The notes: a model not told the origin generated them from the sequence alone. 64,000 nt of DNA from Methanobacteriota archaeon (GCA_002710015.1 PAOW01000033.1:8059-72058); one strand, 5' to 3'. Shown: positions 18,771 through 58,668, counted from the stretch's first letter. Translations and numbers: made by a program.

Positions 18771-21193
18771 ACCTCATGATTGACTAAGTGCAAAATTACC
18801 CTTCCTTCATCGTCCAATTCGAGCCATGAAAAAGAAACCCCCGAATCAGGTTGTAATGCTGAGATATTGACTGTCTGTCCCGCAGGGATAACAATGTCAT
18901 TAGATACGTTCCACTGCTTCCCATTGCCGTCAAATTCAATGTTTATTTCGACTTCACTCGACCCGGGGTTCTCAAGAATTAGGCTGCCGTTTTCTATCAT
19001 AACTGAGCCTATCCAGTGCTGTGTCCTTTCACCCAATGACTCGATTATCAGACTCGGCCCATCCCTAACAAGATATGTTATTGGCCTCTCGATTGACTCA
19101 CAATCTGTAATTGTTGAACCAGAAGGTACTAATAGACGGGTTTCGTTATCAGGATTATTTTTTGCTTGATAAACAATTGACATGTCCCACGTATGTTCGC
19201 CACTAATATTATCCCCGTTATACTCGACTTTATTTGTATCCAAGCAGTTTTCATCAGGATGATTGTAAGCTAAGACAGAATCACCAAACATCAACTCATC
19301 AGGGCCTAATATTACTCCTTCACTTGGTATAGAAAGGAAATGATCTTTTGAATATCCAGATTTGAAGGTATTATTGTAAATGGTAAACTGGTAATCTTCC
19401 AAATAACTCATGTCATCACCCGATAGTGCGATCAAACAAATTTCTGGATTCTTGATTTCAACAGATACGCTACCATTTTGATTTAGATTGTCCCAATATG
19501 TGTTGAGTGGTGATTCGGAGATATTGATGTATGAATCAATAGCTGTATTTAGTTCTAAACAGGCTTTTGGATCATCTAAATCTCCATTGAACTTCCAATC
19601 CCCTTTTGGATAAATATCGACATTGGGTTTCACTAAATTTTTCAATATTGCCTTTGAGTTTGTATCCACCTGCTCTACTTGCCATAATATATCAAATACT
19701 GATGGATTCCAGGGGGCTTCCCATTTGAAACTAAATTCTAATTCCAAATCTTGTTTGGGAGCGATTTCTCCATAGCATGAGTAATTGTCTAAGATCTTTC
19801 CAGTATTACAACTAATATTGCTATCAAGAGAAAAATCAGTTGCATGATAGTCTAGGAACTTGACTTTGTATGTCTGTTTAATTAGTGAAGGGTTACTTAC
19901 AACTATTGTTTGGTTAAACCAATCATCTTTTATTGAAAGTGTCTCATCTTCTAATTCCCATGTTATGCTGTCTCTCCAGTCCTCATCTTCGTAGAATGGA
20001 ATTTGGGCAGGTAACGCAGCTAAGAATGCGACAAATAGGATAACACCCAATCTGAAATGATCTTTTTCGGGTAATCCTTTGAAGTCATCTAAAACAACTG
20101 GTAATCTAGGATCACCTCCTCTCGAAATCAGCAGTGAACCACATAATGCAATGACTAGAACCCATATGCTCCATTGTGAAAATGCTCCATATAAGAATGC
20201 AAAGAGTAGAATTACTAACAACAACATTACCTGAGTAGATCCCGAACGTGCCTCGGGAATACCCATACGGGCAATTAGAACTCTACCTCCGGGGAATGTA
20301 GGTATTGGAAGTAGCGAAACCCATCCTACGAAGGTTAGCACCATCCCGACTCTCGTGAATGGATGAGCCCATGAAGTTTTGAGAATCAGTCCTAATTCGG
20401 ACTCCATACTTAATCCAATCAGTTGTATGATTAGCGGCAATTCCAGAACTAGAGGAGCTGCGTCAACAATAGCGTAGTCAGGTGTTAGGTAAATTCCAAA
20501 CAAGCAAAGGAATATTCCTGAAGTTATGATTACTAAAGGTGCTGATATTGCAGTATTTCCCAGAGTTGACCTATCAGGCCACAATCTAGCATCGCTCCTA
20601 GGGAGAGAAGCAAACCCAATTATTCCAAATGGCCACCATACTAAAGCGGGCCCAGGAATAGGGAATAAGTGCGGTAAGTGTACTCCTCTTTTCTTAGCCA
20701 CAAATTTCTGAATGAATGATGCTAAAATAAGTGTTGAAAATATTGGAACTGAATAACCTAAGAATGCATCAAAGGTTGCATTTTCAACAAACCAACCACC
20801 CTCTGGACGAGCAGATGATAACCATTTTTCACCTGCAAACATTGTAGTGAGAAGTGAAAACACCCACATTGCAATTACAAATCTCGGAGATGGCCATTGC
20901 ATTCTTGGATCTCGAATTAACTGAATAATCCAAGGATCGTCGGGATAAAGACGTGCATTATATCCAAGATTTTTCAAATGCGCATTTATCTCAATCAGGA
21001 CATCATGCATATTTTCATTCTCTCGCTCAGACACAACGAAAGTAGGGCTTCTACCGCCAACGTCCTCAATTACGTAGCAGTATCGGGACAAAATACGCTG
21101 CAATGTTTCCCGTTTTGTCCACGCTTCTTTGTGGACTTGGATTACATCTTCGCTAGACATGCGGTTACTCTCCCGATATTTATCTGGGTGCAA
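18767..21193 (-). CDS. Polytopic membrane protein with S2P/M50-like core but degenerate catalytic motifs, fused to a large N-glycosylation-rich extracytoplasmic domain
   Basis: 808 aa. The region FIQKFVAKKRGVHLPHLFPIPGP aligns with the S2P HExGHalvAkrlGv context, but HExxH is missing. LLPIPTFPGGRVL sits in place of the LDG motif. The C-terminal ~450 aa carry many NxS/T sequons. Confidence 0.45.
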   Translation of the reverse strand: MHPDKYRESNRMSSEDVIQVHKEAWTKRETLQRILSRYCYVIEDVGGRSPTFVVSERENENMHDVLIEINAHLKNLGYNARLYPDDPWIIQLIRDPRMQWPSPRFVIAMWVFSLLTTMFAGEKWLSSARPEGGWFVENATFDAFLGYSVPIFSTLILASFIQKFVAKKRGVHLPHLFPIPGPALVWWPFGIIGFASLPRSDARLWPDRSTLGNTAISAPLVIITSGIFLCLFGIYLTPDYAIVDAAPLVLELPLIIQLIGLSMESELGLILKTSWAHPFTRVGMVLTFVGWVSLLPIPTFPGGRVLIARMGIPEARSGSTQVMLLLVILLFAFLYGAFSQWSIWVLVIALCGSLLISRGGDPRLPVVLDDFKGLPEKDHFRLGVILFVAFLAALPAQIPFYEDEDWRDSITWELEDETLSIKDDWFNQTIVVSNPSLIKQTYKVKFLDYHATDFSLDSNISCNTGKILDNYSCYGEIAPKQDLELEFSFKWEAPWNPSVFDILWQVEQVDTNSKAILKNLVKPNVDIYPKGDWKFNGDLDDPKACLELNTAIDSYINISESPLNTYWDNLNQNGSVSVEIKNPEICLIALSGDDMSYLEDYQFTIYNNTFKSGYSKDHFLSIPSEGVILGPDELMFGDSVLAYNHPDENCLDTNKVEYNGDNISGEHTWDMSIVYQAKNNPDNETRLLVPSGSTITDCESIERPITYLVRDGPSLIIESLGERTQHWIGSVMIENGSLILENPGSSEVEINIEFDGNGKQWNVSNDIVIPAGQTVNISALQPDSGVSFSWLELDDEGRVILHLVNHEV

Positions 21194-29719: not shown

Positions 29720-29851
29720 TTGTTCACCCCTAGGTAAACCTCCGAAATGCAACCGGTTGATAACCAATGTGGTCTAGAAAAATTGCATGAATTTTCTGTT
29801 GTATTCTCAATAGCACCAAATTCTCAAAACCAAAATCCCAGAGGGCTTGTT

Positions 29852-30592
29852 ATGTCTGACCGTTCGGCAACCCAAGGTTTTGACCCTTCAGGTATAGACG
29901 AAGATGCGTGGACAGAACTAGAAAGGCAACTTGAAGCCACCATTCCTGTATATGACAAAGTCAACAAAATAATGACTTTAGGGTTTGACAAAAGCATGAG
30001 AAAACACGTAAGGAGTCATGCGCAAGCAGGGATGAAAGTATTGGAAGTTGGATGTGGCCCGGGCTCTTTCGCCGTCGACCTAGAAAATGTCGATTTGACA
30101 TGTCTGGATCCAAGTGCCGAGATGCTCAAGGTTTGTAAGAAAAGAGTGGACAAGGTTCGAAAATCGAGGGGAGAGACCCCCGCTAAATACGTCGAAGCTA
30201 TCGCTGAAGAAATTCCATTACCCGATGATACATTTGACAGAGTTTTCTGTTTATTCTCTTTCAGGGATTTCAAGGATAAAAAACAAGGTTTGACAGAAAT
30301 TTTTAGAGTCCTTAAACCGGGTGGCCAGTTAGTAATTTGTGACGCAGGAAAAGCAAATTGGTTCCATGGACTCTTTGGTAGACTTTACATGGGAACTTTC
30401 GTTCAGTGGGTTGCTAGAATTGTAACAAAAGATCCCAACCACCCTTGGAAGTGGTTAGCAAGAACTTACACACACTACGGAACTCATTCCTACTACAAGA
30501 ATATCATGAAAGAGATAGGATATAATGATGTTAAAGCAAGGCTTCTTTTCCCTGGAATGTCAAGCAGATTCAAAGCACGAAAGCCTGAGTGA
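29852..30592 (+). CDS. ubiE: UbiE/MenG-family quinone C-methyltransferase (class I SAM MTase)
   Basis: ORF from 29747; likely start MSDRSATQGF. Has IPVYDKVNKIMTLGFDKSMRK (UbiE YD..N..mS.G pattern), SAM motif I VLEVGCGPG, and motif post-I LKPGGQLVICD. Confidence 0.7.
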   Translation: MSDRSATQGFDPSGIDEDAWTELERQLEATIPVYDKVNKIMTLGFDKSMRKHVRSHAQAGMKVLEVGCGPGSFAVDLENVDLTCLDPSAEMLKVCKKRVDKVRKSRGETPAKYVEAIAEEIPLPDDTFDRVFCLFSFRDFKDKKQGLTEIFRVLKPGGQLVICDAGKANWFHGLFGRLYMGTFVQWVARIVTKDPNHPWKWLARTYTHYGTHSYYKNIMKEIGYNDVKARLLFPGMSSRFKARKPE

Positions 30593-30657: not shown

Positions 30658-31461
30658 TCAAGCGATACGCTCAACAGTTTCTGGTGTGATTCCTTCCTCT
30701 GGCGTTACTCTGTACACCATGATCGAAAGGTTTTCTGGAGCATTTCTGAATTTTGAAACAATCATAGAGGTCTCAAAGTCAGAACCGATTGTTCTAACCT
30801 TGAAATCACAAACCATGTCTGCAATTGCAGCCATTTCTTGTTTTACTGCTGGCGTAATTGTGTCGTTTGATACTGTGATGAACAGGATGCCACGGTATAG
30901 TTGTGTATGCGCTTGCATCATTCTCAACATAGCAACTACTCTGCCCGGATCATCTCTTTGCATGAAGAAATCTAGTGAATCTATAACTGCTCTGAAATAA
31001 GGACCCATGGCCATAACTTCATTTGTCATTTCAGTAAGGAAATCCTGGGTGTCATCATCAACAAAGCGAGTTTGGGCAAGTCTTTGGATATCAGGAAGTT
31101 TGAACCCTTCAAGCCTATATCTACTTGCTAACAATTCCTTTTCGAGAACCTTTGCATTGTATTCCTCACCAAGTGTCCTTACTGCTATGTCCGTTGGCCA
31201 ATTATATTTCTTGAAAACACGAGCAATTTCAAGCTGTGATTCGTTTGTAGAGATTAATATTGTATTTTCTGGTTCTTCAGCAGGGGAGGTAAATTGTTTT
31301 GCAAAAAGTTCGGAACCTGACCCTGTTTCTGTAAATCCAACAACCAAAAATCCTCTGGGAACTCCTCCATGCATTGCATTATCGAATTTGGGAACTCCAA
31401 AACTGCCAACACCTCCGAAGAAATCCTCATCTTCTGGGTTGAATTTCATCTGCTTGTTCAT
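30658..31461 (-). CDS. KaiC/RecA-superfamily-like protein with degenerate Walker A
   Basis: 267 aa. The P-loop position reads GFTETGSGSELF, with no GK[ST]. A Walker B-like AVIDSLDFF is retained. It is the last gene of a three-gene KaiC-like tandem. Confidence 0.55.
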   Translation of the reverse strand: MNKQMKFNPEDEDFFGGVGSFGVPKFDNAMHGGVPRGFLVVGFTETGSGSELFAKQFTSPAEEPENTILISTNESQLEIARVFKKYNWPTDIAVRTLGEEYNAKVLEKELLASRYRLEGFKLPDIQRLAQTRFVDDDTQDFLTEMTNEVMAMGPYFRAVIDSLDFFMQRDDPGRVVAMLRMMQAHTQLYRGILFITVSNDTITPAVKQEMAAIADMVCDFKVRTIGSDFETSMIVSKFRNAPENLSIMVYRVTPEEGITPETVERIA

Positions 31462-31474
31462 TACAAATCAATCC

Positions 31475-32068
31475 TCAATGAATTACAACTTGACCTCTAT
31501 CAATGAGGTCTGTACAATATAGATCCAAGTTTGATAACACCGAAGGCGGGACTTGGTCGGGAACATTCAAGATTACTGTTAGAACCTCTCTTTGTCTGAA
31601 TGTATTAATAAAAGTGTGAAGATACTCAGCCAACATTCTTTCTTCATTGTATATTGCAAGAGAGTTTACTGAATCGATGAGGACAAAATTTCTTTCTGTG
31701 TTTGCGATTCTGAGCCTGTAAAGGGTTCTTAGCAACACGCTTTCTAGCATAATCGGGCTGTCAATAAAGGTGACGTTAGGGTATTGCACGTCTGTTCCGC
31801 CGAGTATCCCTGAAGATACCAAATCAATAAACTGAATATTAGAAACATCAACTCCGATTGTTTCAAAAGCCTCAATTATCTCAACAGCACCTCGAGTTGC
31901 GCAGATGTATACTCCACCCATCTCAAACATCTGCATGAGAGGAATCATTGTTGAGGCTGTAACCATGAATGCGTTAGAGTTACCACACCTAACTTGAATA
32001 GAAGAACTTAGGCTAACCTCGCTAAGTTGCTCCGCAATACGCTGATCTAACTCGAACAAATCAAGCAC
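31475..32068 (-). CDS. KaiC/RecA-like fold protein lacking Walker A
   Basis: 197 aa. No P-loop; a Walker B-like LIDSVNSLAIY is retained. Overlaps the upstream KaiC-like gene by 8 nt. Confidence 0.4.
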   Translation of the reverse strand: MLDLFELDQRIAEQLSEVSLSSSIQVRCGNSNAFMVTASTMIPLMQMFEMGGVYICATRGAVEIIEAFETIGVDVSNIQFIDLVSSGILGGTDVQYPNVTFIDSPIMLESVLLRTLYRLRIANTERNFVLIDSVNSLAIYNEERMLAEYLHTFINTFRQREVLTVILNVPDQVPPSVLSNLDLYCTDLIDRGQVVIH

Positions 32069-32861
32069 CCCACCTGCTAGTATTGTCGTTTACAGCTCCC
32101 CATTTAAGCATAGGAGTTAGCATAACGCCAAGTGGTGTCAATTCAATTGAATGTTTAGCTCGACTGTGAGCTGTTCCGCGCATTTTTACTACTTGCAAAA
32201 ATCTTAGCAGATGCCCCATACGCTCAACATCTCCCATTACGATGATTCCATCAGCAATCGCTTCTTCTACACCAAACGATGACCAGTGAGCATTTTCTGA
32301 TGCTGAAGTTATCTCTGAGATGAGTATTGTAGTACAACCAAGAGTTGCTAATTTCTTCCCTAGTGTGAATAAGAAATCACGAATTAACTGCTCGCTTTTA
32401 ATCTTGTAACACAGAGTCGTTACTGAGTCTATTACTAGCCTTGTTACTCCTATTGTATTTACGATGTCAACAATCGCTTTAATGAGAGCGTGAACGTCTT
32501 CTAGATCAAACGATGCTTTATCCAATCCCAGCCATGAATAAAGCACGTCCATATCGAATACGTTGATTAAACCTGAATCAATCATATTCATGTCAAAAAA
32601 TGCATACTGACGGATGTTCTCAAGCAGCTTCACACTTGGTTCTGTTGCGGTAAAATGTGCGCATGCTTCCCCTGCCAGAGCACCTCTAACAAGGAACTCC
32701 ATTCCTAGCGTGGTTTTACCTGAACCGCATGTTCCTGCTGCCAAAACAGTGGACCCATAAGGTATTCCGCCTCTCAAAATCTCGTCCATGCCGTGAATAC
32801 CAGTAATGCAACGGTCCCGACTATACACTGTTGCTGGCTGCATGGGTAACACTATACCCAA
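32061..32861 (-). CDS. KaiC-like RecA-superfamily ATPase (single domain, intact P-loop)
   Basis: 266 aa. GIHGMDEILRGGIPYGSTVLAAGTCGSGKTTLGMEFL (Walker A), and Walker B RLVIDSVTTL. Belongs to the archaeal signal-transduction-type KaiC family. Confidence 0.7.
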   Translation of the reverse strand: MGIVLPMQPATVYSRDRCITGIHGMDEILRGGIPYGSTVLAAGTCGSGKTTLGMEFLVRGALAGEACAHFTATEPSVKLLENIRQYAFFDMNMIDSGLINVFDMDVLYSWLGLDKASFDLEDVHALIKAIVDIVNTIGVTRLVIDSVTTLCYKIKSEQLIRDFLFTLGKKLATLGCTTILISEITSASENAHWSSFGVEEAIADGIIVMGDVERMGHLLRFLQVVKMRGTAHSRAKHSIELTPLGVMLTPMLKWGAVNDNTSRWGA

Positions 32862-32896
32862 ACCATCACACTAAATGAACGATACGCCAAAAACGC

Positions 32897-33976
32897 TCAA
32901 ACTACGCCGGGAGTTGGTGTATTCGATATGTCCCATGAATCATCAAGAGATGGGGGCCCACCATTCCAAACTATGCTGCTATTTTGAAGTATTATGTCGT
33001 TAGATGTCCATTCTATTTTGCATACTTGATAACCCACGCCCTCATCTTCTTCAGCAAATAGGAACCTAAGGCGTCCTTTATTGTCATCAAGACCATCTAA
33101 ATTTCCGACTCCCAAAAATCCGGTTGTTCCTAAATCATACACCACGCTAGCGCTTCCTGTAACTTGGCTAGAAGGATCGCCACTGAAAATCGCCAATTTT
33201 CCTCCGGGTATAACTCCGGATTTGTATAAATAATCGCTTTCTCCGTTTGTGCCGGTCCTTTCAAAAGACCACCCTTTTAGGGAGATTGCAAAGCCATTCT
33301 GATTCTGAACTTCTATCCATTCAGGGCCATTTTGTGAAGGCTTTGGTGATATTTCTGTCACACGCAGAATCTTTGGAGAATCTGCTCCATCATGGACCTC
33401 GAGGCTTACTGAGATTACATTATCATTTGATATGAATGTTCTACTAGCCACAGAGGACATAGTCGCCGTCGACCTTTCAGAACCACCTGTGAACAGTATA
33501 TTTCCAACTTCAGATTCGTTTGATGAAGATATTACTTTTATGAGCAATTTTACTTGCAAACCGTAAGATAATCCCAGACCACTTGTTACTGCCTCCACAC
33601 TGACATTACATAGGGCATTGATTCTGTCAAAATCTAACAATCCATTTTTCATTATCCCTGGTTGTATGACGCCCTTTTCAATTTGGCTGGGAGAAATGTG
33701 ATGCCAATTCTCAGTAGCATTAGCTTGATCTCTTACTCCATCTTTGTAAGGTACATACCACCCCTCGCCATTTGTTAGTCGATCTAATCCGTCTACTGCT
33801 GACCTATCAACCAAATCGGTGTATGGATCGTTACTCCCTAATTCTAATTGAGCTAAAGACATGAAAGCAGTTAAAATCATCAAAAACAAGGTAAAGGCAG
33901 AGAGGAATTCAACGACTGCAACTACTGCGTTCTCATCGTCAGAAGCAGCAAGGCATACTGCTCTCCTACCCTGCAT
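32897..33976 (-). CDS. N-terminally membrane-anchored extracellular protein with lamin-tail-domain (LTD)-like module
   Basis: 359 aa. An N-terminal hydrophobic anchor, NxS/T sequons, and PEWIEVQNQNGFAISLKGWSF matching the LTD signature (E.iEl.N.g...v.L.GW.l). Confidence 0.5.
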   Translation of the reverse strand: MQGRRAVCLAASDDENAVVAVVEFLSAFTLFLMILTAFMSLAQLELGSNDPYTDLVDRSAVDGLDRLTNGEGWYVPYKDGVRDQANATENWHHISPSQIEKGVIQPGIMKNGLLDFDRINALCNVSVEAVTSGLGLSYGLQVKLLIKVISSSNESEVGNILFTGGSERSTATMSSVASRTFISNDNVISVSLEVHDGADSPKILRVTEISPKPSQNGPEWIEVQNQNGFAISLKGWSFERTGTNGESDYLYKSGVIPGGKLAIFSGDPSSQVTGSASVVYDLGTTGFLGVGNLDGLDDNKGRLRFLFAEEDEGVGYQVCKIEWTSNDIILQNSSIVWNGGPPSLDDSWDISNTPTPGVV

Positions 33977-34099
33977 GATATAGGGTAAAGGGTCATTCTA
34001 TTGAGAGTGTCGCCAGTTTATGTTCAAATTGTTACAATACCACAATTATTGACTTCAGCCACCGATTCATATTTGAGTAGATGATACCACCACCCTATC

Positions 34100-37051
34100 A
34101 TGGCCTGCGAAAGCGTTACCAATAGAAGACACTCATCCAAGAGGTCTATTGGGCTAGTTTCGCTTTTGATATTAACATCAATAGGCGGAATAATGGCAAC
34201 ACCTAGCGCTGCTGCTTCTGTTAGCGGTGACTACGAAATAACCGCATCCGTATCCCCTTTACCCGGAGATTACATGTCTGCTTGGGACCCTGTTTACATG
34301 GAAGTTGAAATAACAAACTCAGGGTTTTTCTACAACACTCAGCCAAGATCAGTAGAATGGTTCGTTTGTGAGGGCAACCAATTAGAGAATGACTGTTATA
34401 ACAATCGAGAGGGATACGGAATAGGTTCAATCGATCCAATAATTGTAGGTGAAAGTGTTACTTACAGTTTCTCAAACTATTTCTCACCAAATGGTGATGA
34501 AGGACTTTATACACTTGTCTATAGATTTATCGATTCCGATACAAACACAACAAATGATGCAGGCATTTACAATTTTAACTTGGTGAGGAAACTTGTTGAT
34601 GTTATATTTGAGGAGCAAGATATTCTTGGTCAATTAGAAGGACTTGCAAGTTACAATGATGTATTGATTCTAAACACTGACACAGACTACCTAACCAGTG
34701 TTGAGGGCATTGCAAAGTCTTGCGGTAGTTGTGGATTGGTTGCAAACCTTGGTTGGAAAATCACAGATAATTTTGGAGTTGAACTAGCGAACGCTACTAC
34801 TTCATACGCCGACCTTCCAAATTGGGGTGAAAGCTCCTTTACACGTAATCTTCCCCCAATTAATTTTGACACAGAAGGTGTCTATACGCTGTATTATGGA
34901 ATAATAAGTTCAACAGGAACACCTTCCGGAGATATGAACTCTTACAACGATCTACAAAGCTTAGAAATTACCTTTGACGACACCGTCGACTTGCAAATCG
35001 AATCTATGCATCCAAGTTATGCACCAAGTTCCGCAGTATACTATTATGGTAACAATAGTGTTTCAGTTTCGGTAGCCAATCTTGGAAACCATACTGTTGT
35101 AGAACCTCTAGTCAGATTCACGATCTTGACTCTCGATGAAAATATTGAATCACAACAAGATTGCCTCCCCGAGGAGATTATCCCAGGTGAATCATACGTT
35201 TGCAATTTCAACTTGAATGCGCTCGGTGATAAACGGCTTAGGGTTTTCGTTAGCGAAGCTTTGAATGAGGGACTAGATCAAAAGCCATCTGATAACACCC
35301 TAAATGTGATATCTGAAGTTGTTAGAGGAGAGATAAACCCTTTAATCGAGCAAACAAATTTCTTCGGTACTTACAAAACAGCAGACAACATTGATTTGAA
35401 TGCTAGAGTTAATCCAACTGCCGCTGCTCCGCTTTCATACACTTGGTGGATGAGCGGTATTATCCCGATTGGTTCTGGCCAAAACGTTTCAATCCCTGCA
35501 TCCACATTAGGACTTGGAGATCATTATCTTACTGTTCGTGCTACTGATGCTTTGGGAACATTGGAATCCGAAACCATACCCATTACTATATTCAACAGCA
35601 CTGATATCAGCATTGGAAACTGGTTGAACGGATCTGCTGTGACTAGGACGCACGCTACCGCTATTGCAGAATATGATTACCCGCTTGTTGGCGCCAATTA
35701 TGCCGTAGGTGAAAATCTAGAGCCCTTGCTGCGTATGTCAATCGATGTAATACCTACTACCAATGCTCCCGATGCTGGCATGGATTGGATGGAATTTGAC
35801 ATAAATCTAACAAATGTAATCCCAGATAATATCCCCAGAGAATCTATTGCAGTCCACAAATTAAACGGATACGAACAAGTCATATGGGAACCTTTGGACT
35901 CAGAAAATTTCTTTCAAGTTATAGATAATGATACTCTGCGTGTTAACATAACACAGAATATGGACTTAATCATCGTAGGAGATTTACCATCACCAGAAAT
36001 CGACCTTGACAATCCAATACTGACACTTTTGCCTGATGGTAAAATGAAACTAGATTGGAATTCTAGTGGAGACTTATCAAATCCCTATTTTGGAGGTTGG
36101 AAAATTTTCAGAGTAACCAGCCCGGTAACTGTATCTGCATACTTTCCAAACCCAGACGATGTTCCTAGTAGATTTGTATGGGAGGGATTGATGAAAGATT
36201 CCTTGTCTGCAACCTTGAACGGAACAATGAACTCTTGGATTGACGAGCGCTCATTAGAGACCGGAATTTGTGCATCATATGCTGTAATACCAACTGATAG
36301 GGCAGGTAATCCTGATTATTTAGAAGCAGAAGTCTCCCTTGTTGACGGCGTCCCAGGATTGACGTGTGGTGATGCAATTGACCCAACTGCTAGTGTCTCA
36401 GGATTAAAATCAAATGTTGTATATACCAACGATAGTGACTGCCATGCTGCAAATAGGAATTGGGACATGTGCTATGAATTAACCCTGTCATGGACATGGC
36501 CCGATAATGAGCCAAGTGGAGATCTCTCTTGGAACATATACAGAATTGAACAGAAACCTGAAGATGTAGATCTAAGATTTGTCACCCCGATTGCTACTGG
36601 ACTACAAAATGTGCCTGGAGAGCAAGGAAATTTCACTCAAACCGGACTTGAGTATGATGGAATAAGGCCTTACAGAACTTACTATTACATACTTACGCCA
36701 ATTGATAATATTGGTAATGAGTTGACTACTATTGGTGGTAGTTCTTCATCAAATGTCCACAGAGTCTACATTGAAGACCAATACTGGCAATACAACCAGC
36801 ATAGAATTCCAGAACCACCTGAACCACCTGAACCACCTTATGGCATTGAATGGTTAGGCGATTTAGAGGACTTTATGGAGCAAGAGAACTTTCAATTAGC
36901 AGGAATAATACTTCTAGTCACGATTGTAGTGAACTTCATAGGGTTACCAATTATACTCAAGAAAAGAAAAAGGATGGCAAGAGCGTTATCTAGAAGAAAA
37001 AATAGACAAGCAGAGAATTTAGATGATGATTTTGAAGATTTCTTTAACTAG
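34100..37051 (+). CDS. Large (983 aa) secreted, heavily N-glycosylation-sequon-rich surface protein with PEP-repeat stalk and C-terminal TM anchor
   Basis: Signal-peptide-like N-terminus and dozens of NxS/T sequons. PEPPEPPEPP precedes the hydrophobic helix LAGIILLVTIVVNFIGLPIIL, followed by a basic tail. There is no PGF-CTERM. Confidence 0.6.
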   Translation: MACESVTNRRHSSKRSIGLVSLLILTSIGGIMATPSAAASVSGDYEITASVSPLPGDYMSAWDPVYMEVEITNSGFFYNTQPRSVEWFVCEGNQLENDCYNNREGYGIGSIDPIIVGESVTYSFSNYFSPNGDEGLYTLVYRFIDSDTNTTNDAGIYNFNLVRKLVDVIFEEQDILGQLEGLASYNDVLILNTDTDYLTSVEGIAKSCGSCGLVANLGWKITDNFGVELANATTSYADLPNWGESSFTRNLPPINFDTEGVYTLYYGIISSTGTPSGDMNSYNDLQSLEITFDDTVDLQIESMHPSYAPSSAVYYYGNNSVSVSVANLGNHTVVEPLVRFTILTLDENIESQQDCLPEEIIPGESYVCNFNLNALGDKRLRVFVSEALNEGLDQKPSDNTLNVISEVVRGEINPLIEQTNFFGTYKTADNIDLNARVNPTAAAPLSYTWWMSGIIPIGSGQNVSIPASTLGLGDHYLTVRATDALGTLESETIPITIFNSTDISIGNWLNGSAVTRTHATAIAEYDYPLVGANYAVGENLEPLLRMSIDVIPTTNAPDAGMDWMEFDINLTNVIPDNIPRESIAVHKLNGYEQVIWEPLDSENFFQVIDNDTLRVNITQNMDLIIVGDLPSPEIDLDNPILTLLPDGKMKLDWNSSGDLSNPYFGGWKIFRVTSPVTVSAYFPNPDDVPSRFVWEGLMKDSLSATLNGTMNSWIDERSLETGICASYAVIPTDRAGNPDYLEAEVSLVDGVPGLTCGDAIDPTASVSGLKSNVVYTNDSDCHAANRNWDMCYELTLSWTWPDNEPSGDLSWNIYRIEQKPEDVDLRFVTPIATGLQNVPGEQGNFTQTGLEYDGIRPYRTYYYILTPIDNIGNELTTIGGSSSSNVHRVYIEDQYWQYNQHRIPEPPEPPEPPYGIEWLGDLEDFMEQENFQLAGIILLVTIVVNFIGLPIILKKRKRMARALSRRKNRQAENLDDDFEDFFN
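36810..36840 (+). repeat. In-frame 9-bp tandem repeat (x3) encoding PEPPEPPEPP stalk
   Basis: ccagaaccacctgaaccacctgaaccacct, seen directly in the sequence inside the 983-aa surface protein gene. Confidence 0.7.
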
Positions 37052-39352: not shown

Positions 39353-40195
39353 TTGGGCATACACATGGGGAGGAGGGGTTTAGTCGCACTTTTTGCAGTA
39401 ACTATACTTTTTTCTGGACCCGCAACCAGTCATGGCATTGAAGGCGCACATTCAGAAGGTTACATCATCGACGTAATCGTTGTTGATTTAGAATGCGAGG
39501 AAAACTACACCTGTGTTTCAAGAGCTAGCAACATAATTGAATACTTTGGTGCTGATTGGTGTGACGAATGTCCAGACGTAGAGAAGACCCTTAATGAAAC
39601 ACCAAACCAGTCTGAAATTATCCTTAGCCACAGGCCATCTACTACCGACGAATTTTGGCTCCCTGCCTCACGTGAACGATTTTTAGATGTCTATGGGCTG
39701 TGGGGATATCCTACAATTGCATTGGACGGACACTATATTTTAGCTGGCCCAACCCAAGCTAAAGAATTAAATTCCCTACTTTCCAATTCCATTTCAAACT
39801 ACAGCGGTATAACCAACGCAACATTGGATAATAATTCCCTGACCTTAGAGGGGCAATTTGATAATCTTAGTATCGATGTGTGGACAGTAATATCTGATGG
39901 AAATATTACAAATCTAGCATTAAATCACACAAACTACTCACAATCAAATATTGTTAACACAGATGGAGAGAAATTAATCATTGTTTTATCAAACCCAGGA
40001 TACATTGCACTTCAATCAGGATCTTCAATACCTGCTGGAGATTATGATCCGGACGGAGGAATTTATCAAGCCGATGAAGATAAAAATCAGTTCAATGTTT
40101 CTACTGTTGTAATCATCACAATACTACTGATTATAATCTCACTTCCAGCTACATACCAACTTCTTCAAGTCATCAAAGATAATGGTAAGTCCTGA
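39353..40195 (+). CDS. Secreted thioredoxin-like CxxC protein with C-terminal TM anchor
   Basis: 280 aa. A signal-like N-terminus, FGADWCDECP (WCxxC), NxS/T sequons, and a C-terminal hydrophobic helix VVIITILLIIISL. Divergent from ctaA. Confidence 0.4.
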   Translation: MGIHMGRRGLVALFAVTILFSGPATSHGIEGAHSEGYIIDVIVVDLECEENYTCVSRASNIIEYFGADWCDECPDVEKTLNETPNQSEIILSHRPSTTDEFWLPASRERFLDVYGLWGYPTIALDGHYILAGPTQAKELNSLLSNSISNYSGITNATLDNNSLTLEGQFDNLSIDVWTVISDGNITNLALNHTNYSQSNIVNTDGEKLIIVLSNPGYIALQSGSSIPAGDYDPDGGIYQADEDKNQFNVSTVVIITILLIIISLPATYQLLQVIKDNGKS

Positions 40196-42867: not shown

Positions 42868-44607
42868 TCAGTCATCTAATAATTCATCTAGGATATCTGA
42901 GGATTCTGATTCATCCTCTGAACCATCCCAATCACCGCTTTCAATCGCTGCGATTCTCTCTCTAGCTTCATTTATCTTGGCTGTTCTAGATTCTGGATCC
43001 TCTAAGTTAAACTCACAGATTAGCATTATCGGATCTCCGTTAGAAATCTCACCCTCATACTCTAATATCTCTCCACCTGCGTTACAGATAACTTGGAATT
43101 TTGTCGGGTCTTTTGACCTGCGCTTCTTATGTTTCTTGTAATGATGGACATATGCTTTGTAAGTTCCACCTGGAGCCTTTGATTCAGGCCAGACAACATT
43201 TTCAACTGGCTTCTTGGTCTCAGGTCTGACATTGGCATCAACATCCAACTCGCCTCCACAGGCTGATTCGCGATTACCTCCATGAATTCTCTCACCCGAC
43301 GGACAGACAACATGTAGGTCCAAGTCATTGTAATTATTCCACAAAAGGGATATTTGGACATCAGAAGATCTTGCTCCTTCTCGCTCTAATCTCTCTTTCA
43401 GTTCCTTTAATACCTGTTCTGTTGCCTTTATCGATTCTAATTCATCGGCTTCGTTAGCAACTATTTCAGCAAGGCGCTGTTCCTCTGCTTCAGCCATCTC
43501 TTGCTGTCTTTGCTCTTCCATCTCAATTGCGAGTCTTTCTTCTTCAGCGATACGCTCAGTTTCTTCTGCTATCAATGCAGTCTCTCTTTCTTCATCTGTC
43601 CCTCTTTCTTCAGGAGGTTCTAACTCGAATTCACATACTAGTAAAATCGGGTCTCCAGCCGATAGTTCTCCCTCGTAATGTTTGATTTCTCCGCCAGAGT
43701 TGACCACTACACGGAATTGTGTTGGATCTTTTGACCTGCGCTTCTTGTGTTTTTTGTAATGATGAACATAAACCTTGTAGTTGCCAGGAGGGGCTTTAAA
43801 ATCGGGCCACACAATATTTTCCACTGGCTTTTTAGTTTCAGGCCTTACATTAGCATCAACATCTAACTCTCCACCACATTCAGAAGTCTTGTTACCTCCA
43901 TGTATCCTCTCACCAGAAGGGCATAGAACGTGTAAGTCAAGATCGTTGTAGTTGTCCCACATGAGCGAGACTTGAACCTCGGAAGTTTTCGCTCCTTCCC
44001 TATCAAGTCTCTCTTCTAATTCCTGCTCTGCCTGCTCACTGGCCATTTGTGCTTCAAGCGCCTCAGATTCTTTCAACGCTTCAATCTCGGATTTCCTAGC
44101 TTCCTCTTCTTCTGCTAATTCCTGTTGCCTTTCAGCCTCTCGTTCCTCAGCAAGTCGCTTTTCCTCTGCGAGTCTTTCAGCTTCTCGTTCCTCAGCAAGC
44201 CGTCTTGCTTCATCTAACTCCGCTTGTCTCGCAGCTTCATATTCAGCCTTCTTTCTAGCTTCTTCAGCCTCTATCTCAGCAACTCTAGCTTCTTCTTCAG
44301 CAATCAATTTCTTTGCGGCTCTGTCAGCTAAATCTTTTCTTGCTTGTTCCTCTGCCAGAAGAATCGCCCTTTCATCTCTACGCTTGGATTCAAGGTGCCT
44401 CTCTACCTGAGCTAACTTCTTGTCAAACTCGTTATGAGCCTGCCTGAAATCAGGCGCACCTCTACGTGTCAAATCTTGCCTGTGAATAGTCATTGTTCGA
44501 GAGCTTTGATCGTCCTCTCTCACAAGCATGAACCAAATACCAAATAGAAAAGCACCGCCTAAAAAGCCGATAATCAGCCAAGAGGTCAGGTCCATGAGAC
44601 AAGCCAA
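42868..44607 (-). CDS. Membrane-anchored charged coiled-coil protein with two tandem copies of a ~130-aa Cys/His-bearing beta-domain (DUF2135/YfaP-like by motif memory)
   Basis: 579 aa. N-terminal TM, then E/R/A-rich coiled coil. The unit SLMWDNYNDLDLHVLCPSGERIHGGN..CGGELDVDANVRPETKKPVENIVWP...YKVYVHHYKKHKKRRSKDP occurs twice. The nucleotide copies lie at about 43611..43986 and 42975..43365. Confidence 0.6.
   Translation of the reverse strand: MACLMDLTSWLIIGFLGGAFLFGIWFMLVREDDQSSRTMTIHRQDLTRRGAPDFRQAHNEFDKKLAQVERHLESKRRDERAILLAEEQARKDLADRAAKKLIAEEEARVAEIEAEEARKKAEYEAARQAELDEARRLAEEREAERLAEEKRLAEEREAERQQELAEEEEARKSEIEALKESEALEAQMASEQAEQELEERLDREGAKTSEVQVSLMWDNYNDLDLHVLCPSGERIHGGNKTSECGGELDVDANVRPETKKPVENIVWPDFKAPPGNYKVYVHHYKKHKKRRSKDPTQFRVVVNSGGEIKHYEGELSAGDPILLVCEFELEPPEERGTDEERETALIAEETERIAEEERLAIEMEEQRQQEMAEAEEQRLAEIVANEADELESIKATEQVLKELKERLEREGARSSDVQISLLWNNYNDLDLHVVCPSGERIHGGNRESACGGELDVDANVRPETKKPVENVVWPESKAPGGTYKAYVHHYKKHKKRRSKDPTKFQVICNAGGEILEYEGEISNGDPIMLICEFNLEDPESRTAKINEARERIAAIESGDWDGSEDESESSDILDELLDD
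42975..43986 (-). repeat. Intragenic direct duplication (~0.38 kb units about 620 bp apart)
   Basis: Nucleotide stretches near 43081.. and 43701.. are closely similar by eye (for example ...tcttttgacctgcgcttcttatgtttcttgtaatgatggacatatgc... versus ...tcttttgacctgcgcttcttgtgttttttgtaatgatgaacataaacc...). They encode the two protein-domain copies. Confidence 0.65.
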
Positions 44608-44664
44608 TGCTAACAGGAACTTATTACCATCGCTGAAAAAATCAAAAAATTCATGCAGAATTAC

Positions 44665-47103
44665 CTAATTTGAGAGGTCCTTAACCTTCTCTACCAAATC
44701 CATGTTGCGCAATCTCCAGATACCGATTGGAGTCATCGCAACTGCGATTATCAATACACCAAATAATAGTTCAAATGCTACACTATCGACCAACAAAACT
44801 GGGAAGTAAAATTGCCAAGAAGAAAACGATGCTGCCAAGCCGACTGCACCAAGATAGGCGAACAGAACCCCTATCAATCCACCAATTATACCGATTAGCA
44901 CGCTTTCAAACAATAGCATGATACCAAGTCTGGTTGTCGATGCTCCTAACACTCTCAAAGTCGCCAATTCGAAATCTCTCTCAGCTACATTCATTATCAT
45001 CGTGTTTAGCATAACTGCAATAGTAAACAGCAATCCTAGATACATAATTGCTTGGAACAAATCGGTTTGTTTTTCAATCAAAGATTCAACCCCATTTAGT
45101 AGGGTTACTCTTTCGACAATACCTACTGATATCTCGCCCAAACTGAAGTCAACCTCAACTCCATCAGGCATCATAATGTAGACAGAGGTTGCATTAACAC
45201 CAGTAATTTGAGTTAAATCCTCTCTATCAAAATACATAGTTCTGGATAATTCTCCACGTGTTATTCCTACGATTTTTACCTCTGATTCCTCTCCGTTGAG
45301 TGTAACTAGTCTAGTTTCACCTATTTCCCACCCAAGGAATTTCATCGCACCTTCGTCCATCAATACTTGCAATTCATTATCTGATTTTTCAGGTAAATCA
45401 CCACTTAGTAGGTTTACAGAACGCATTTTAGAACTGAAATCACTCAGGCCCACCATTGTGAAAATTCGGGCTACACCGCTAGAATCTTCGACCGAGCCGA
45501 GGGGCATTTCTATTACCAATTCCCACTCACAAGAATTACCTTCTGCCCAATCTACAACTGCGCCCTCACTACCTGGATTCACGTAAACTTGTGCATCCCA
45601 ATTTTGATCATCCTCAATACTAGATACTAGCGTATTCTCAAACCCTGCGGATATCATTTGTATAGACCCAAATAGCATTAGGGAAATTCCAACAGCTAGG
45701 AACGTCATTGTCAGCCTGATTGGCTTCCTGACACTTGATCTCACTGAGAGGCTTAGCGTTGTGGGTAGCCAAGAAGTTATTTTCTTAATTATATTCGAAC
45801 CAATTTTTACTTCATTTTGGCCACTCAAAACTTCCAGCGGATCTATTCGGCTAGCTTTCAATGCTGGAAATGCACCTGAAAAGAAAACTACTGCCATAGT
45901 TAGAGATACGACTGTTGTATATGTCGTAAGGGGGATGTCACGTTTTATTATTGGAACTCCAACAATATCTTGATACAAATCAAGCATCCAATTAGCTCCA
46001 TATGGACCTAAAAGACAACCGATTAGACATCCGATTCCGCCTATAATTACTGGAGCAATCATATAACCTTGAAGTAATGATTTCCTAGAAACACCCAAAG
46101 TTCTCAACACTGCAATTTCTCTTGCTTGGCTTTGTACTAATCTTTGGAGGCTCAGAATAATTGTTATAGAGGCAATAGCAGCAATCATCAGAGTAAATGG
46201 AACAGTAGTTCTTTTTGCACCTTCAAGGTCTTGACGCATTACTTCGACGGCCTCATATTGGCCTCTGTCTCTGACTCTAGCATCAAGATTCTCAACTTCG
46301 AGGACATCCTCAACAATTTGCTTTACTCGATCGATTTCATCTCCTTCGTACTCCTCAGTATCAGGCAAATCGTAACTCGGTTTTCCTTCGACATCAAGCA
46401 TTATTGTATTACTTGACCCAACTGTATTACCAGTAAGTCTTTCCATACCCAAATCGGACAAATATCCAACCACATAATCTCCTTCTTCTGGAGGAAAGAA
46501 AGTCCCTTCAGGAGCCATTAATATGTGAAGTGGGTGAAAGCCAATACCAACAATTTCAAATTCTGCTGAAGAATTTCCAGCACCAATTAATATCATATCA
46601 CCCAGGTCAAGATCCAAGGCTTCAGTAACATGAGCATCTATAACAATCTCATCTGAATTGCTCGCCAATCTACCTTTGGAATGTTTATCAGGCATCCAAA
46701 CGGTGTCGACATTTGCACCCACCGGTATACCATGCCACAATGAATTTATTGTCACACTCCCTGTATCTGTTGATTGAAACATTGCGCCTTTAACAATTGA
46801 TCTGCCTTCACAGTGATCTAAATTTGAGGTCAAGTTCCACCTTTCATTCAATTCAGAACAAAAGGACTCAACCTGCTCTGAAGTCCACATTATGCTACCA
46901 TTATCAATCCACAAGTCTGCAAGATTTGCCCCTTCTTCATCGTCACCATGCATAGTTGAATACATATTGTCAAGATTATGTGAATACCCACCAAACGTTA
47001 TTCCTGCAAAAACACCAACTGAGACCATGAAAACTACTGCTAGAAGCCTTAACTTCGTGCGCCATAGGCTTCTCATCAATCTCTTGTTTAACAGTGCAGA
47101 CAA
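44665..47103 (-). CDS. ABC transporter permease, MacB/FtsX-like with two FtsX domains and large extracytoplasmic loops
   Basis: 812 aa. An N-terminal TM, a large periplasmic-type domain, a 3-TM FtsX unit, a second large loop and a second FtsX unit. Immediately upstream of the ABC ATPase. Confidence 0.75.
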   Translation of the reverse strand: MSALLNKRLMRSLWRTKLRLLAVVFMVSVGVFAGITFGGYSHNLDNMYSTMHGDDEEGANLADLWIDNGSIMWTSEQVESFCSELNERWNLTSNLDHCEGRSIVKGAMFQSTDTGSVTINSLWHGIPVGANVDTVWMPDKHSKGRLASNSDEIVIDAHVTEALDLDLGDMILIGAGNSSAEFEIVGIGFHPLHILMAPEGTFFPPEEGDYVVGYLSDLGMERLTGNTVGSSNTIMLDVEGKPSYDLPDTEEYEGDEIDRVKQIVEDVLEVENLDARVRDRGQYEAVEVMRQDLEGAKRTTVPFTLMIAAIASITIILSLQRLVQSQAREIAVLRTLGVSRKSLLQGYMIAPVIIGGIGCLIGCLLGPYGANWMLDLYQDIVGVPIIKRDIPLTTYTTVVSLTMAVVFFSGAFPALKASRIDPLEVLSGQNEVKIGSNIIKKITSWLPTTLSLSVRSSVRKPIRLTMTFLAVGISLMLFGSIQMISAGFENTLVSSIEDDQNWDAQVYVNPGSEGAVVDWAEGNSCEWELVIEMPLGSVEDSSGVARIFTMVGLSDFSSKMRSVNLLSGDLPEKSDNELQVLMDEGAMKFLGWEIGETRLVTLNGEESEVKIVGITRGELSRTMYFDREDLTQITGVNATSVYIMMPDGVEVDFSLGEISVGIVERVTLLNGVESLIEKQTDLFQAIMYLGLLFTIAVMLNTMIMNVAERDFELATLRVLGASTTRLGIMLLFESVLIGIIGGLIGVLFAYLGAVGLAASFSSWQFYFPVLLVDSVAFELLFGVLIIAVAMTPIGIWRLRNMDLVEKVKDLSN

Positions 47104-47140
47104 CTATATCACTCACTTCATACTGATTTTGTGTTTCAAA

Positions 47141-54400: not shown

Positions 54401-54410
54401 TATGATACCC

Positions 54411-55724: not shown

Positions 55725-55755
55725 ACTACGTCACCTACGGTTATTCAGTGAAATT

Positions 55756-56925: not shown

Positions 56926-56945
56926 GTCTTTTTTACCTCCTTAGT

Positions 56946-58517: not shown

Positions 58518-58668
58518 TTTTCTCCACCAATTAATCGGCTACGTACAAACGTAGTAATCAACGGAACTTCACTACACTCATATAGATTATCGTGGCTTGC
58601 TCAAATTTTTGAAATGAATATCATATGACCTATAAGAGTATCATTCCCTTATTTGTGAATTAAATACG

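Follow-up and report, generated by a model that had tools for sequence, protein, structure and literature searches.

A four-gene operon in the analysed stretch of archaeal DNA (64,000 nt, hereafter the window) encodes a lamin-tail-domain (LTD) surface protein and three KaiC-fold proteins, p2, p3 and p4, of which the first is a predicted ATPase and the other two are degenerate paralogues. The p2-p3-p4 trio is an old, phylum-wide operon of the Thermoplasmatota, and the LTD protein is a Poseidoniales-only addition to it. The most consistent partners of the trio are type IV pilin genes, together with a prepilin peptidase gene in MGIIb-type loci, and this gene adjacency points to a probable functional link of the trio with pilins and surface proteins. 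We give about an even chance to the reading that the trio forms a KaiC-like ATPase/pseudo-ATPase complex, probably a hetero-oligomeric ring, which regulates or assists a type-IV-pilin-based surface structure.

The four genes, read as ORFs from the sequence, are intact and tightly packed on the minus strand. The LTD gene and p2 are separated by 35 nt (TTG start of p2) or 53 nt (ATG start), p2 and p3 overlap by 8 nt (GTG start of p3) or leave a 1-nt gap (TTG start), and p3 and p4 are 13 nt apart. This spacing is close enough for translational coupling. The features of the locus are as follows.

34100..37051, plus strand: 983-aa cell-surface protein with a signal peptide, a PEPPEPPEPP linker, a C-terminal membrane anchor and an acidic tail
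33977..34099, no strand: divergent intergenic region common to the LTD operon and the 983-aa gene, with presumed promoters
32897..33976, minus strand: the 359-aa LTD surface protein, whose gene opens the operon
33845..33931, minus strand: residues 16-44 of the LTD protein, its N-terminal membrane helix, including the invariant glutamate E23
33389..33760, minus strand: residues 73-196 of the LTD protein, a middle alpha/beta ectodomain that has no Pfam family
32924..33367, minus strand: lamin-tail domain (Ig-like beta-sandwich), residues 204-351, with PEWIEVQN and LKGWSF
32061..32861, minus strand: p2, predicted active single-domain KaiC-like ATPase, 266 aa from TTG, PF06745 at 177 bits
32709..32735, minus strand: Walker A of p2, GTCGSGKTT, read from the sequence, with GxGKT invariant
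31475..32068, minus strand: p3, with the KaiC fold but no P-loop, 197 aa (GTG start) or 194 aa (TTG start at 32059)
30658..31461, minus strand: p4, KaiC-like pseudo-ATPase, 267 aa, PF06745 at 53 bits
31309..31338, minus strand: degenerate P-loop of p4, GFTETGSGSE, from the sequence and the family alignment

The first-pass annotation had placed the four ORFs at these positions and on this strand, and had read three of them as one catalytic and two degenerate KaiC-fold paralogues. Pfam and NCBIfam profiles together with the motifs bore this out. In the HMM search that it had proposed, p2 and p4 matched PF06745 above its threshold, and the RadB and FlaH scores stayed far below the cut-offs.

p2 matched PF06745 with 177.1 bits (threshold 26.6) over HMM positions 3-228 of 231. 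Walker A (GTCGSGKTT), the catalytic Glu in TATE, Walker B (LVIDSV) and KMRGTAH (K-x-R-G-x-x-H) were all present. G40, G42, K43, T44, E68, D139 and K220-x-R222-G (260-aa numbering) were invariant in 13 diverse Thermoplasmatota orthologues. The best solved relatives were the KaiC CI domain (E 7e-41), PH0186 and PH0284. By score and motifs p2 is a bona fide single-domain KaiC-like protein, for which ATPase activity is predicted. The ATG at 32843 is the more likely start than the TTG; it gives the 260-aa form carried by public databases under the name 'circadian clock protein KaiC'.

p3 has a RecA/KaiC fold without a P-loop, and its best structural matches were the KaiC-like proteins PH0284 and SSO2452. 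Its PF06745 score was 23 bits (threshold 26.6), and on NCBIfam it reached only 15.7 bits (PRK06067). The catalytic Glu is replaced, as 'ATR' aligns with the 'ATE' of p2, and the protein terminates before the K-x-R motif; in the alignment of the wider family, D132 alone is invariant. Window p3 gave no match to DUF7504, DUF7090 or DUF835 at an E value of 1 or better. Such matches were seen in family members at 21-65% identity (DUF7090 in 24 of 36, DUF7504 in 18, DUF835 in 9), and in large TPR/CARDB membrane proteins the C-terminal domain is a relative of p3.

p4 showed clear KaiC-domain homology (PF06745: 53.4 bits; hhalign to p2: 97.6%) with the Walker A Lys and Thr lost, which makes it a KaiC-fold pseudo-ATPase. 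Among 50 family members, the Lys position was never Lys (T, M, S, L, V or I), and the Thr position was Glu in 46 and Asp in 4. The degenerate P-loop is itself the conserved signature, G-x-P-G-[SA]-G-x-E-L-F-A-K-Q-F. The family also conserves E74, R157, D161 and K237-x-R-N-x-P-E, and p4 keeps a Walker B-like motif, AVIDSL.

Purifying selection acts on all parts of the operon. Across MGIIa and MGIIb, identity to the window proteins was 77-95% for the KaiC protein, 66-80% for p3, 56-76% for p4 and 38-49% for the LTD protein. The four-gene arrangement recurs in every related Poseidoniales locus examined, far beyond chance.

The trio is distributed widely across the Thermoplasmatota, with 362 tblastn-confirmed stretches in the species-representative genome collection. 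The p2-p3-(p4) order, without the LTD gene, was found in 75 of the 80 loci of other (non-Poseidoniales) Thermoplasmatota species, where the genes overlap or nearly abut (median gaps of 0 and −4 nt). Directly after the trio, or after a p2-p3 duo, one to three co-directional PilA-type pilin genes were observed in 46 of 59 informative loci, which are the non-Poseidoniales loci with enough downstream DNA; the median distance to the pilin gene was 131 nt. Three representative pilins scored 39-45 bits on Pfam Pilin_N (gathering score 25.2), and one representative trio-adjacent pilin matched the solved Haloferax and Natrinema PilA pilins. The pilin adjacency was present in both trio and duo lineages. 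The remaining 13 loci, including Aciduliprofundum/DHVE2, had a trio or duo without an adjacent pilin. A motif search of 84 loci for an ORF with T2SSE-type Walker A detected no PilB/ArlI-type ATPase within 7 kb of the trio.

Only the Poseidoniales (Marine Group II) have the LTD partner, and there its gene keeps its place beside the trio in three genomic contexts that are unrelated to one another. The window belongs to the MGIIa lineage, in which the whole region is syntenic. Five loci taken to be Marine Group IIb (MGIIb-type) had genomic contexts unlike that of the window. In all five, the LTD gene and trio adjoin a FlaK-type prepilin peptidase with DLKIRRVPN and GGADAK motifs, and three of the five also contain a Pilin_N gene. 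On Arc_PepC_II (gathering score 29.9) the peptidase of locus L085 scored 33.2 bits, and that of L087 scored 27.5 bits, below the gathering score. The peptidase gene was found on either side of the LTD/trio block in different MGIIb-type contexts.

In the window itself, Pfam searches of 40 of its 55 ORFs of at least 150 aa gave no KaiA, KaiB, ArlI/ArlJ, T2SSE, TadC or A24 peptidase. The scanned ORFs held neither a PilB/ArlI-type ATPase nor a TadC/PilC platform, and so no complete type IV pilus system. A profile built from trio-adjacent pilins of other lineages found no pilin among the window ORFs. In MGIIa, pilin and peptidase are elsewhere or absent from the locus, and the first-pass annotation missed this context because the window lacks those genes. 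Its statement that the locus has no KaiA/KaiB and no FlaI/FlaJ, and is not an archaellum locus, agreed with the ORFs scanned. The neighbourhood survey that it had called for showed the LTD-plus-trio order in the Poseidoniales and the trio arrangement conserved far beyond close relatives. Of its envelope-linked module, the envelope link held, as the LTD gene is adjacent in three Poseidoniales contexts; the trio itself proved to occur well beyond this locus and also without the LTD protein.

The LTD protein has one N-terminal membrane helix (hydropathy peak 2.48; AF2 helix 13-46), a short cytoplasmic tail and, on the predicted topology, extracellular alpha/beta and lamin-tail domains. In the helix, xAV(V/I)EFLSAFTLFLMILTAF is almost invariant in homologues down to 45% overall identity. 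The lamin-tail region is an Ig-like beta-sandwich matching lamin tail; its PF00932 score was 31.5 bits (gathering threshold 34.3), and most homologues are annotated PF00932. The tail comprises only 12-15 residues and is poorly conserved, so direct signalling from the LTD protein to the cytoplasmic KaiC proteins has no obvious structural basis. A role as direct sensor of the KaiC-like regulator is unlikely; the most likely role of the LTD protein is that of an adhesin or an accessory component of the surface, expressed together with the regulator. We also considered it as a type IV pilin. The pilin profile and Pilin_N gave no match to the LTD protein, and its −2 position lacks the Lys/Arg usual in class III signal peptides; pilin likeness stands only as a structural analogy.

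The divergently encoded 983-aa protein carries hydrophobic segments at 16-35 and 929-955. In two MGIIb-type loci with otherwise different flanks, L087 and L089, homologues (26-27% identity along about 780 aa, E about 1e-62) are likewise encoded divergently at this position, and the protein is also conserved in loci L001-L004. It is probably an associated component of the LTD/KaiC module. As a universal partner of the trio it was rejected, since outside the Poseidoniales the large upstream ORFs are unrelated; read by eye, these were leucyl-tRNA-synthetase-like, ribonucleotide-reductase-like or zinc-ribbon/TPR sequences.

Among known systems, p2 is a full member of the single-domain archaeal KaiC-like ATPases (PF06745: PH0186, PH0284, SSO2452), and p3 and p4 share the fold. 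The KaiC families arCOG01171, arCOG01174 and arCOG01175 have been linked to type IV pilus loci as predicted regulators (Makarova, Koonin and Albers 2016, PMC4858521), and several KaiC arCOGs adjoin type IV pilin genes, as the trio does. The association was thus already noted in 2016, and the trio is a further case of it. Compared with those regulators, the trio is a fixed set of three genes, one active and two inactivated paralogues; it adjoins stand-alone pilin genes and not a PilB/TadC operon, and it is conserved across the Thermoplasmatota and coupled to LTD in Marine Group II. No description of this three-gene KaiC set was found in the searchable literature.

ArlH (FlaH), which is cited as the KaiC-like partner of ArlI in PMC12448462, is likewise a single-domain KaiC/RecA-fold protein, and its gene accompanies those of membrane-anchored beta-sandwich proteins and of pilin-like filament subunits. 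It was the best NCBIfam match of the C-terminal half of p4, and homologues of p3 carry the JGI label 'FlaH'. However, the NF052589 scores were 52 bits (p4) and 34.8 bits (p2) against a cut-off of 215, and no arlI, arlJ, arlF/G or archaellin was found in the window or related loci. The archaellum operon occurs in only half of the MGIIb genera (PMC6461757), whereas the trio locus occurs in both Poseidoniales families. The locus as an archaellum fragment was rejected because of the low ArlH scores and the absence of arlI/arlJ.

Haloferax volcanii CirA resembles the trio proteins as a single-domain KaiC-like protein tied genetically to PilA-type pilins and a type IV pilus-like machine: PilA pilin loss blocks motility, and suppressors map to arlI, arlJ and cirA (PMC10983859). 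Unlike the trio, the Cir proteins have no pseudo-ATPase partner and no LTD protein. The cirA to cirD genes are scattered on the chromosome and all encode Walker A and B (PMC3941300), and cirB, cirC and cirD were therefore rejected as an equivalent three-gene operon. A further comparison is with the inactivated KaiC or iKaiC domains (DUF835, MEDS, DUF7504, DUF7090; Galperin et al. 2018, PMC5847659). p3 falls in a P-loop-less KaiC-fold family with members that match DUF7504, DUF7090 or DUF835, whereas window p3 itself matches none of these models at E of 1 or better and stands alone as a 194-aa protein with a fixed place between two KaiC paralogues.

p2 aligns with the CI domain of the cyanobacterial clock protein, but it is one domain (260-266 aa), compared with CI plus CII in clock KaiC (about 500 aa). 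Its scores were 128 bits against 408 for NF006799 and 98.5 against 546 for TIGR02655. With neither kaiB nor kaiA among the 40 window ORFs scanned with Pfam, a KaiABC clock was rejected. A defence system was also rejected: PADLOC gave a single partial match, of p2 to mad8 (20 bits), and none for the other four proteins.

In the regulatory reading, p2, p3 and p4 would constitute one conserved cytoplasmic unit of an ATP-binding and ATP-hydrolysing subunit and two non-catalytic ones, assembled into a KaiC/RecA-type ring; a hetero-hexamer is plausible. Nucleotide binding by a canonical P-loop would be limited to p2. p4 retains the K-x-R 'finger', the Glu at the catalytic position and the Walker B Asp and may complete or modulate a neighbouring site, and p3 may serve as scaffold or adaptor. 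Depending on its nucleotide or phosphorylation state, the complex could then control how type IV pilin-like surface proteins are produced, pooled in the membrane or assembled, with precedents in the action of ArlH on the archaellum motor ATPase ArlI and in the genetic tie of Haloferax CirA to PilA pilins. Marine Group II has this unit joined to an N-terminally anchored protein displaying sensor-like alpha/beta and LTD Ig-fold domains outside, and to the large anchored surface protein. MGIIb-type loci add a FlaK-type prepilin peptidase and, in some cases, a PilA pilin. Counting against a pilin regulator are the lack of pilin, prepilin peptidase, secretion ATPase and TadC in the window, the pilin-free loci (13/59) and the lack of a PilB/ArlI-type ATPase near the trio.

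To our knowledge, the attachment of Marine Group II to particles or phytoplankton has been inferred only from gene content. These are the most abundant planktonic archaea of surface ocean water and have no cultured representative (PMC6461757). The locus defines a conserved module tied to surface proteins, consisting of the LTD-anchored protein, the large anchored surface protein, the KaiC ATPase and two pseudo-ATPases, and in sister lineages it is tied to pilins and prepilin peptidase. As a fixed operon of one active and two dead paralogues across a phylum, p2-p3-p4 is a tractable test case for KaiC-like ATPases as archaeal signalling hubs, and also bears on the communication between such proteins and type IV pilin systems. 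Any cultured Thermoplasmatota found to carry the trio would be usable for biochemistry.

The trio could also be a general KaiC-type signalling hub with outputs unrelated to pili, its neighbours being kept through inherited synteny or shared regulation. This is unlikely, if readily conceivable. It fits the pilin-free loci and the synteny of the MGIIa region, the pleiotropic effects of CirA (PMC10983859), the proposal of KaiC-like ATPases as broad archaeal hubs (Makarova et al. 2017, as cited in PMC5847659) and the fusion of p3-related P-loop-less KaiC domains (DUF7504, DUF7090, DUF835) to REC, TPR and surface-type domains (PMC5847659; also our domain searches). However, pilin adjacency in trio and duo lineages recurs in MGIIb-type loci in an unrelated context, and passive synteny is hard to reconcile with a peptidase on either side of the block.

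We consider it improbable that the three proteins form a complex of RecA-superfamily paralogues with nucleic acids or tRNA as its target, Rad51-paralogue- or Elp4/5/6-like, with a housekeeping and not an envelope role. Very high conservation and the wide distribution would suit it, as would weak Pfam Elong_Iki1 matches (window p3, E 0.046; 6 of 36 family members, best 1e-4). All three proteins are nevertheless closest by sequence to KaiC (PF06745) and not to RadA, RadB or Elp, and the top structural matches are KaiC-like. RadB/RadA was rejected at 12-21 bits on NCBIfam (cut-offs 172-403). Elp4/5/6 of Elongator and the Rad51-paralogue hetero-oligomers showed no specific sequence relationship and offer an architectural analogy only. 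No DNA- or tRNA-related gene is consistently adjacent to the trio, whereas pilins are.

A still fainter prospect is that the trio is not a regulator and is instead the cytoplasmic engine of an unrecognised surface-display or uptake machine. Together, a hetero-hexameric p2/p3/p4 ring and the prepilin peptidase would extract or assemble both the PilA-type pilins and the LTD protein with its pilin-like anchor; no locus-encoded PilB/TadC pair would be needed, and the LTD Ig domain would serve as external binding module. Lamin tails bind DNA, and LTD domains accompany some secreted bacterial nucleases. Binding of extracellular DNA by this domain, and hence DNA uptake, is a guess.

Decay of the two degenerate genes into pseudogenes, or chance juxtaposition of the four, can practically be set aside: the degenerate P-loops and nothing further speak for it, whereas more than 80 loci have intact ORFs without frameshifts, p3 shows 82-100% identity across its 120 best-matching database clusters (each a 90%-identity cluster), the P-loop degeneracy of p4 is itself conserved, and the gene order is kept phylum-wide.

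The operon at 30658-33976 formed a tight minus-strand block, and the first-pass annotation, which described four co-directional ORFs here, was right in every particular. Gene 1 encoded a membrane-anchored surface protein with a lamin-tail domain (LTD protein), and genes 2, 3 and 4 encoded three KaiC-fold proteins, p2, p3 and p4 (together the trio; p2 and p3 without p4, the duo). The block and its two neighbors were as follows:

32897-33976, minus strand, gene 1, LTD protein (359 aa)
34100-37051, plus strand, 983-aa anchored surface protein, divergent from the LTD gene
29747-30592, plus strand, UbiE-type methyltransferase, convergent with p4

The junction between the LTD gene and p2 measured 35 or 53 nt, depending on the start codon chosen; p2 probably starts at the ATG at 32843, which yields the 260-aa database form. 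The p2–p3 junction was an 8-nt overlap or a 1-nt gap, and the p3–p4 junction was 13 nt. Between the LTD gene and the 983-aa gene lies a divergent region of 123 bp. Pfam identified housekeeping genes on the flanks, namely the A-type ATP synthase operon, the UbiE-type methyltransferase, heme A synthase, UbiA, SMC/ScpB, Orc1/Cdc6, and shikimate pathway genes. The Pfam scan of 40 window ORFs found no KaiA/B and no ArlI/J, as had been claimed, and no secretion ATPase, TadC, or FlaK-type prepilin peptidase (A24 peptidase). A profile of trio-adjacent pilins from elsewhere detected no pilin among the window ORFs. Database entries that matched exactly or nearly so were named, among others, Candidatus Poseidoniaceae, Poseidoniales, and ‘Euryarchaeota archaeon’, which places the window in an archaeon of Marine Group IIa (MGIIa). 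In the Poseidonia-type MGIIa loci L001-L004, the methyltransferase gene and the trio share one direction; MGIIa lineages thus differ by an inversion of this single gene. In many other Thermoplasmatota loci, a UbiE-like methyltransferase (flanking-ORF cluster C3) recurred downstream of the trio, a few genes away.

The assignment of one catalytic and two degenerate KaiC-like copies was borne out by Pfam, hhalign, and motif status. p2 matched PF06745 with 177 bits and the KaiC CI domain with an E value of 7e-41, and from these matches it is predicted to be a genuine single-domain KaiC-like ATPase. It belongs to the KaiC family but falls outside the equivalogs of both clock KaiC and ArlH. p3 had no P-loop and its catalytic Glu was replaced (‘ATR’ aligned to ‘ATE’ of p2). 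It scored only 23 bits against PF06745, with an hhalign value of 77% against the p2 family. p4 was a full-length KaiC homologue (PF06745 53 bits, hhalign to p2 97.6%). Its Walker A lysine position held a lysine in none of the 50 family members examined; at the threonine position that follows, 46 members had Glu and the other 4 Asp. Conserved in p4 were Glu74 at the catalytic position, Arg157, Asp161, and K237-x-R-N-x-P-E, which aligned to K-M-R-G of p2. p3 and p4 are inactivated KaiC-fold proteins, a kind already recognized in general terms.

The full HMMER scan with p3 gave 528 cluster representatives at E ≤ 0.001. Many were free-standing, at about 190 aa, and some formed the C-terminal domain of large TPR/CARDB-type proteins. 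Among 36 family members, Pfam matched KaiC in 29, DUF7090 in 24, DUF7504 in 18, and DUF835 in 9; these three DUFs are ‘inactivated KaiC’ domains of Galperin et al. (PMC5847659). Scanning one genome per GTDB species gave 362 tblastn-confirmed stretches encoding p3 relatives, and the best 80 were taken as loci for the neighborhood counts. They came from Thermoplasmata, Methanomassiliicoccales, Aciduliprofundum/DHVE2, and related metagenome-assembled genomes. The order of the KaiC-fold genes was conserved in Thermoplasmatota: among these best 80 of 362, p2 lay directly 5′ of p3 in 75 loci (median gap 0 nt), and p4 followed p3 in 45 (median gap −4 nt). The p2-p3 pair stood alone, without p4, in one clade. 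As the p2-p3-(p4) order is phylum-wide, the set of one active and further dead copies is ancient and strongly constrained, and is no local oddity.

Some database homologues had other architectures. In P0297, P0302, P0309, and P0346 (560-1,800 aa), a P-loop-less KaiC domain related to p3 formed the C-terminus, and the N-terminal parts held TPR/SNAP repeats with CARDB, NPCBM_assoc, BatD, or TRAP_beta Ig-like domains. An arrangement of this kind suggests receptor-like proteins that use the inactivated KaiC domain as the cytoplasmic module. P0241 (2,519 aa), P0262 (749 aa), and P0349 (2,600 aa) showed p3 matches in 43, 12, and 14 separate stretches, respectively, and P0194 was called as a thermosome–LTD fusion; all four are probably assembly or gene-calling artefacts.

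Outside Poseidoniales, clustering of flanking ORFs revealed a family of 130-230 aa proteins encoded immediately behind the trio or duo, in the same orientation and in 1-3 tandem copies. At the N-terminus these proteins read K(A/G)VSPVIATILMVAITVVLAAVLY. With Pfam Pilin_N (gathering score 25.2), three representatives scored 39-45 bits, and a representative matched the solved Haloferax and Natrinema PilA pilins. Downstream sequence was sufficient in 59 non-Poseidoniales loci; such pilins were adjacent in 46 of these (26 after the trio, 20 after the duo), at a median of 131 nt from the last KaiC-like gene, and were lacking in the other 13. The LTD protein was not found in any non-Poseidoniales locus, also in a search with its family profile. 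The arrangement of an LTD gene with three KaiC-like genes held within Poseidoniales, but not in the non-Poseidoniales loci, where the trio or duo occurred without it.

Within Poseidoniales, MGIIa loci whose LTD protein was just 46-49% identical showed the window's arrangement; alone this is weak evidence for a tie between LTD protein and trio, because the whole region is syntenic. More telling are five other loci with surroundings quite unlike those of the window. They were labelled MGIIb-type from a p3 identity of 66-70% to window p3, since database matches named Thalassarchaeaceae fall in the same range. In L085, L086, and L088 the order was A24 peptidase, LTD, KaiC, p3, p4, and Pilin_N, beside EPSP synthase and MutL/MutS. 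In L087 and L089 it was a divergent 1,100-aa protein, LTD, KaiC, p3, p4, and an opposite-strand A24 peptidase, beside gyrA and Lon. The L085 peptidase scored 33.2 for Arc_PepC_II (threshold 29.9) and the L087 peptidase 27.5, just under it. The first aspartyl-protease motif was DLKIRRVPN in L085 and L088, with variants in L087 and L089, and a GGADAK motif was seen in L085. The 1,100-aa protein was homologous to the window 983-aa protein (26-27% identity over ~780 residues, E ~1e-62), and both had a signal peptide, a Pro/Glu linker, a C-terminal anchor, and an acidic tail. Identity to the window was 77-95% for KaiC, 66-80% for p3, 56-76% for p4, and 38-49% for LTD; conservation thus drops from the cytoplasm outward.

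The 983-aa protein, with its PEPPEPPEPP linker, C-terminal membrane anchor, and acidic DDFEDFFN tail, had no Pfam family save a weak fn3 match, and could be an S-layer or major surface protein. In one Thermoplasmata clade (L040, L054, L062, L067, and L083; cluster C35), an unrelated protein of 1,050-1,190 aa was divergent from the trio and showed many zinc-ribbon repeats of the CxxC type, several membrane helices, an acidic region, and TPR repeats at its C-terminus.

The LTD protein scored 31.5 bits with Pfam LTD, below the gathering score of 34.3. In its topology, residues 16-44 were the one hydrophobic segment. The AlphaFold2 model, built from 30 homologues (mean pLDDT 82.6), placed a long N-terminal helix at residues 13-46, a second helix at 51-68, a compact alpha/beta domain at 73-196, and a beta-sandwich at 204-351. 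The membrane helix was the most conserved region, with xAV(V/I)EFLSAFTLFLMILTAF near-invariant in homologues whose overall identity drops to 45%. The LTD N-terminus carries an (L/V/M)(T/V)AV(I/V)E motif. The first-pass annotation proposed envelope-linked signalling or assembly; a link to the envelope is supported by the LTD gene lying beside the trio in different genomic contexts of Poseidoniales. The cytoplasmic tail of the LTD protein is too short, and too variable among homologues, for an obvious signalling link. The protein is best regarded as a surface component expressed along with the trio: it could be an adhesin, a sensor-like ectodomain, or perhaps an accessory with a pilin-like anchor.

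The three KaiC-fold proteins would probably assemble as a ring-type hetero-oligomer, because their gene order is fixed, their stop and start codons overlap, and their motif retention is complementary: p2 kept all motifs, p4 the trans-acting K-x-R and acidic residues without the P-loop lysine, and p3 no more than the core and the Walker B Asp. By analogy to ArlH–ArlI, and to Haloferax, where KaiC-like CirA is linked genetically to PilA pilins (PMC10983859), this complex would probably regulate or assist a pilin-based surface structure. Several KaiC arCOGs are located within type IV pilus loci or close to them (PMC4858521), which agrees with such a role. In Cuniculiplasma divulgatum, the pilin genes cdiPA and cdiPB are reported to lie some 500 kb away from the operon for their machinery (PMC12448462). 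The pilin reading is weakened by the window, which lacks pilin and peptidase, by lineages with the trio alone, and by a motif search of 84 loci, which found no PilB/ArlI-type ATPase within 7 kb of the trio.

KaiC association with type IV pilus loci is already published. Three features appear undescribed in the literature searched, outside which lies the 2017 KaiC survey (mBio 8:e01959-17). The first is the p2-p3-p4 operon of fixed order, in which the pseudo-P-loop signature is conserved. The second is that, across Thermoplasmatota, the trio is directly coupled to PilA-type pilin genes that stand alone. The third is its extension in Poseidoniales by an LTD-anchored protein, a peptidase of the FlaK type, and a large surface protein with an anchor. 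Their interest is raised by the ecological importance of Marine Group II and by the testability of the hetero-oligomer hypothesis.

Elsewhere in the window, the following genes were observed:

1839-3023, plus strand, Orc1/Cdc6
5520-8116, 10233-11399, and 18767-21193, minus strand, and 39353-40195, plus strand, sizeable ORFs without a Pfam family
42868-47827, minus strand, ABC ATPase, 812-aa MacB/FtsX-type permease, and 579-aa DUF2135-containing protein
47914-48573, HTH_10 regulator, adjoining the preceding genes
53486-63370, minus strand, DUF58 protein (54411-55724), MoxR-type AAA_3 ATPase (55756-56925), DUF4350 protein (56946-58517), and five further unassigned ORFs (304, 316, 317, 934, and 191 aa)

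A replication origin may lie in an intergenic region adjoining Orc1/Cdc6. One Pfam-less ORF (808 aa) lay directly 3′ of the ATP synthase operon. The genes at 42868-47827 form a probable export system. The block at 53486-63370 looks like a Bat/MoxR-vWA-type operon, and such systems are counted among the type IV pilus-associated ones (PMC4858521).
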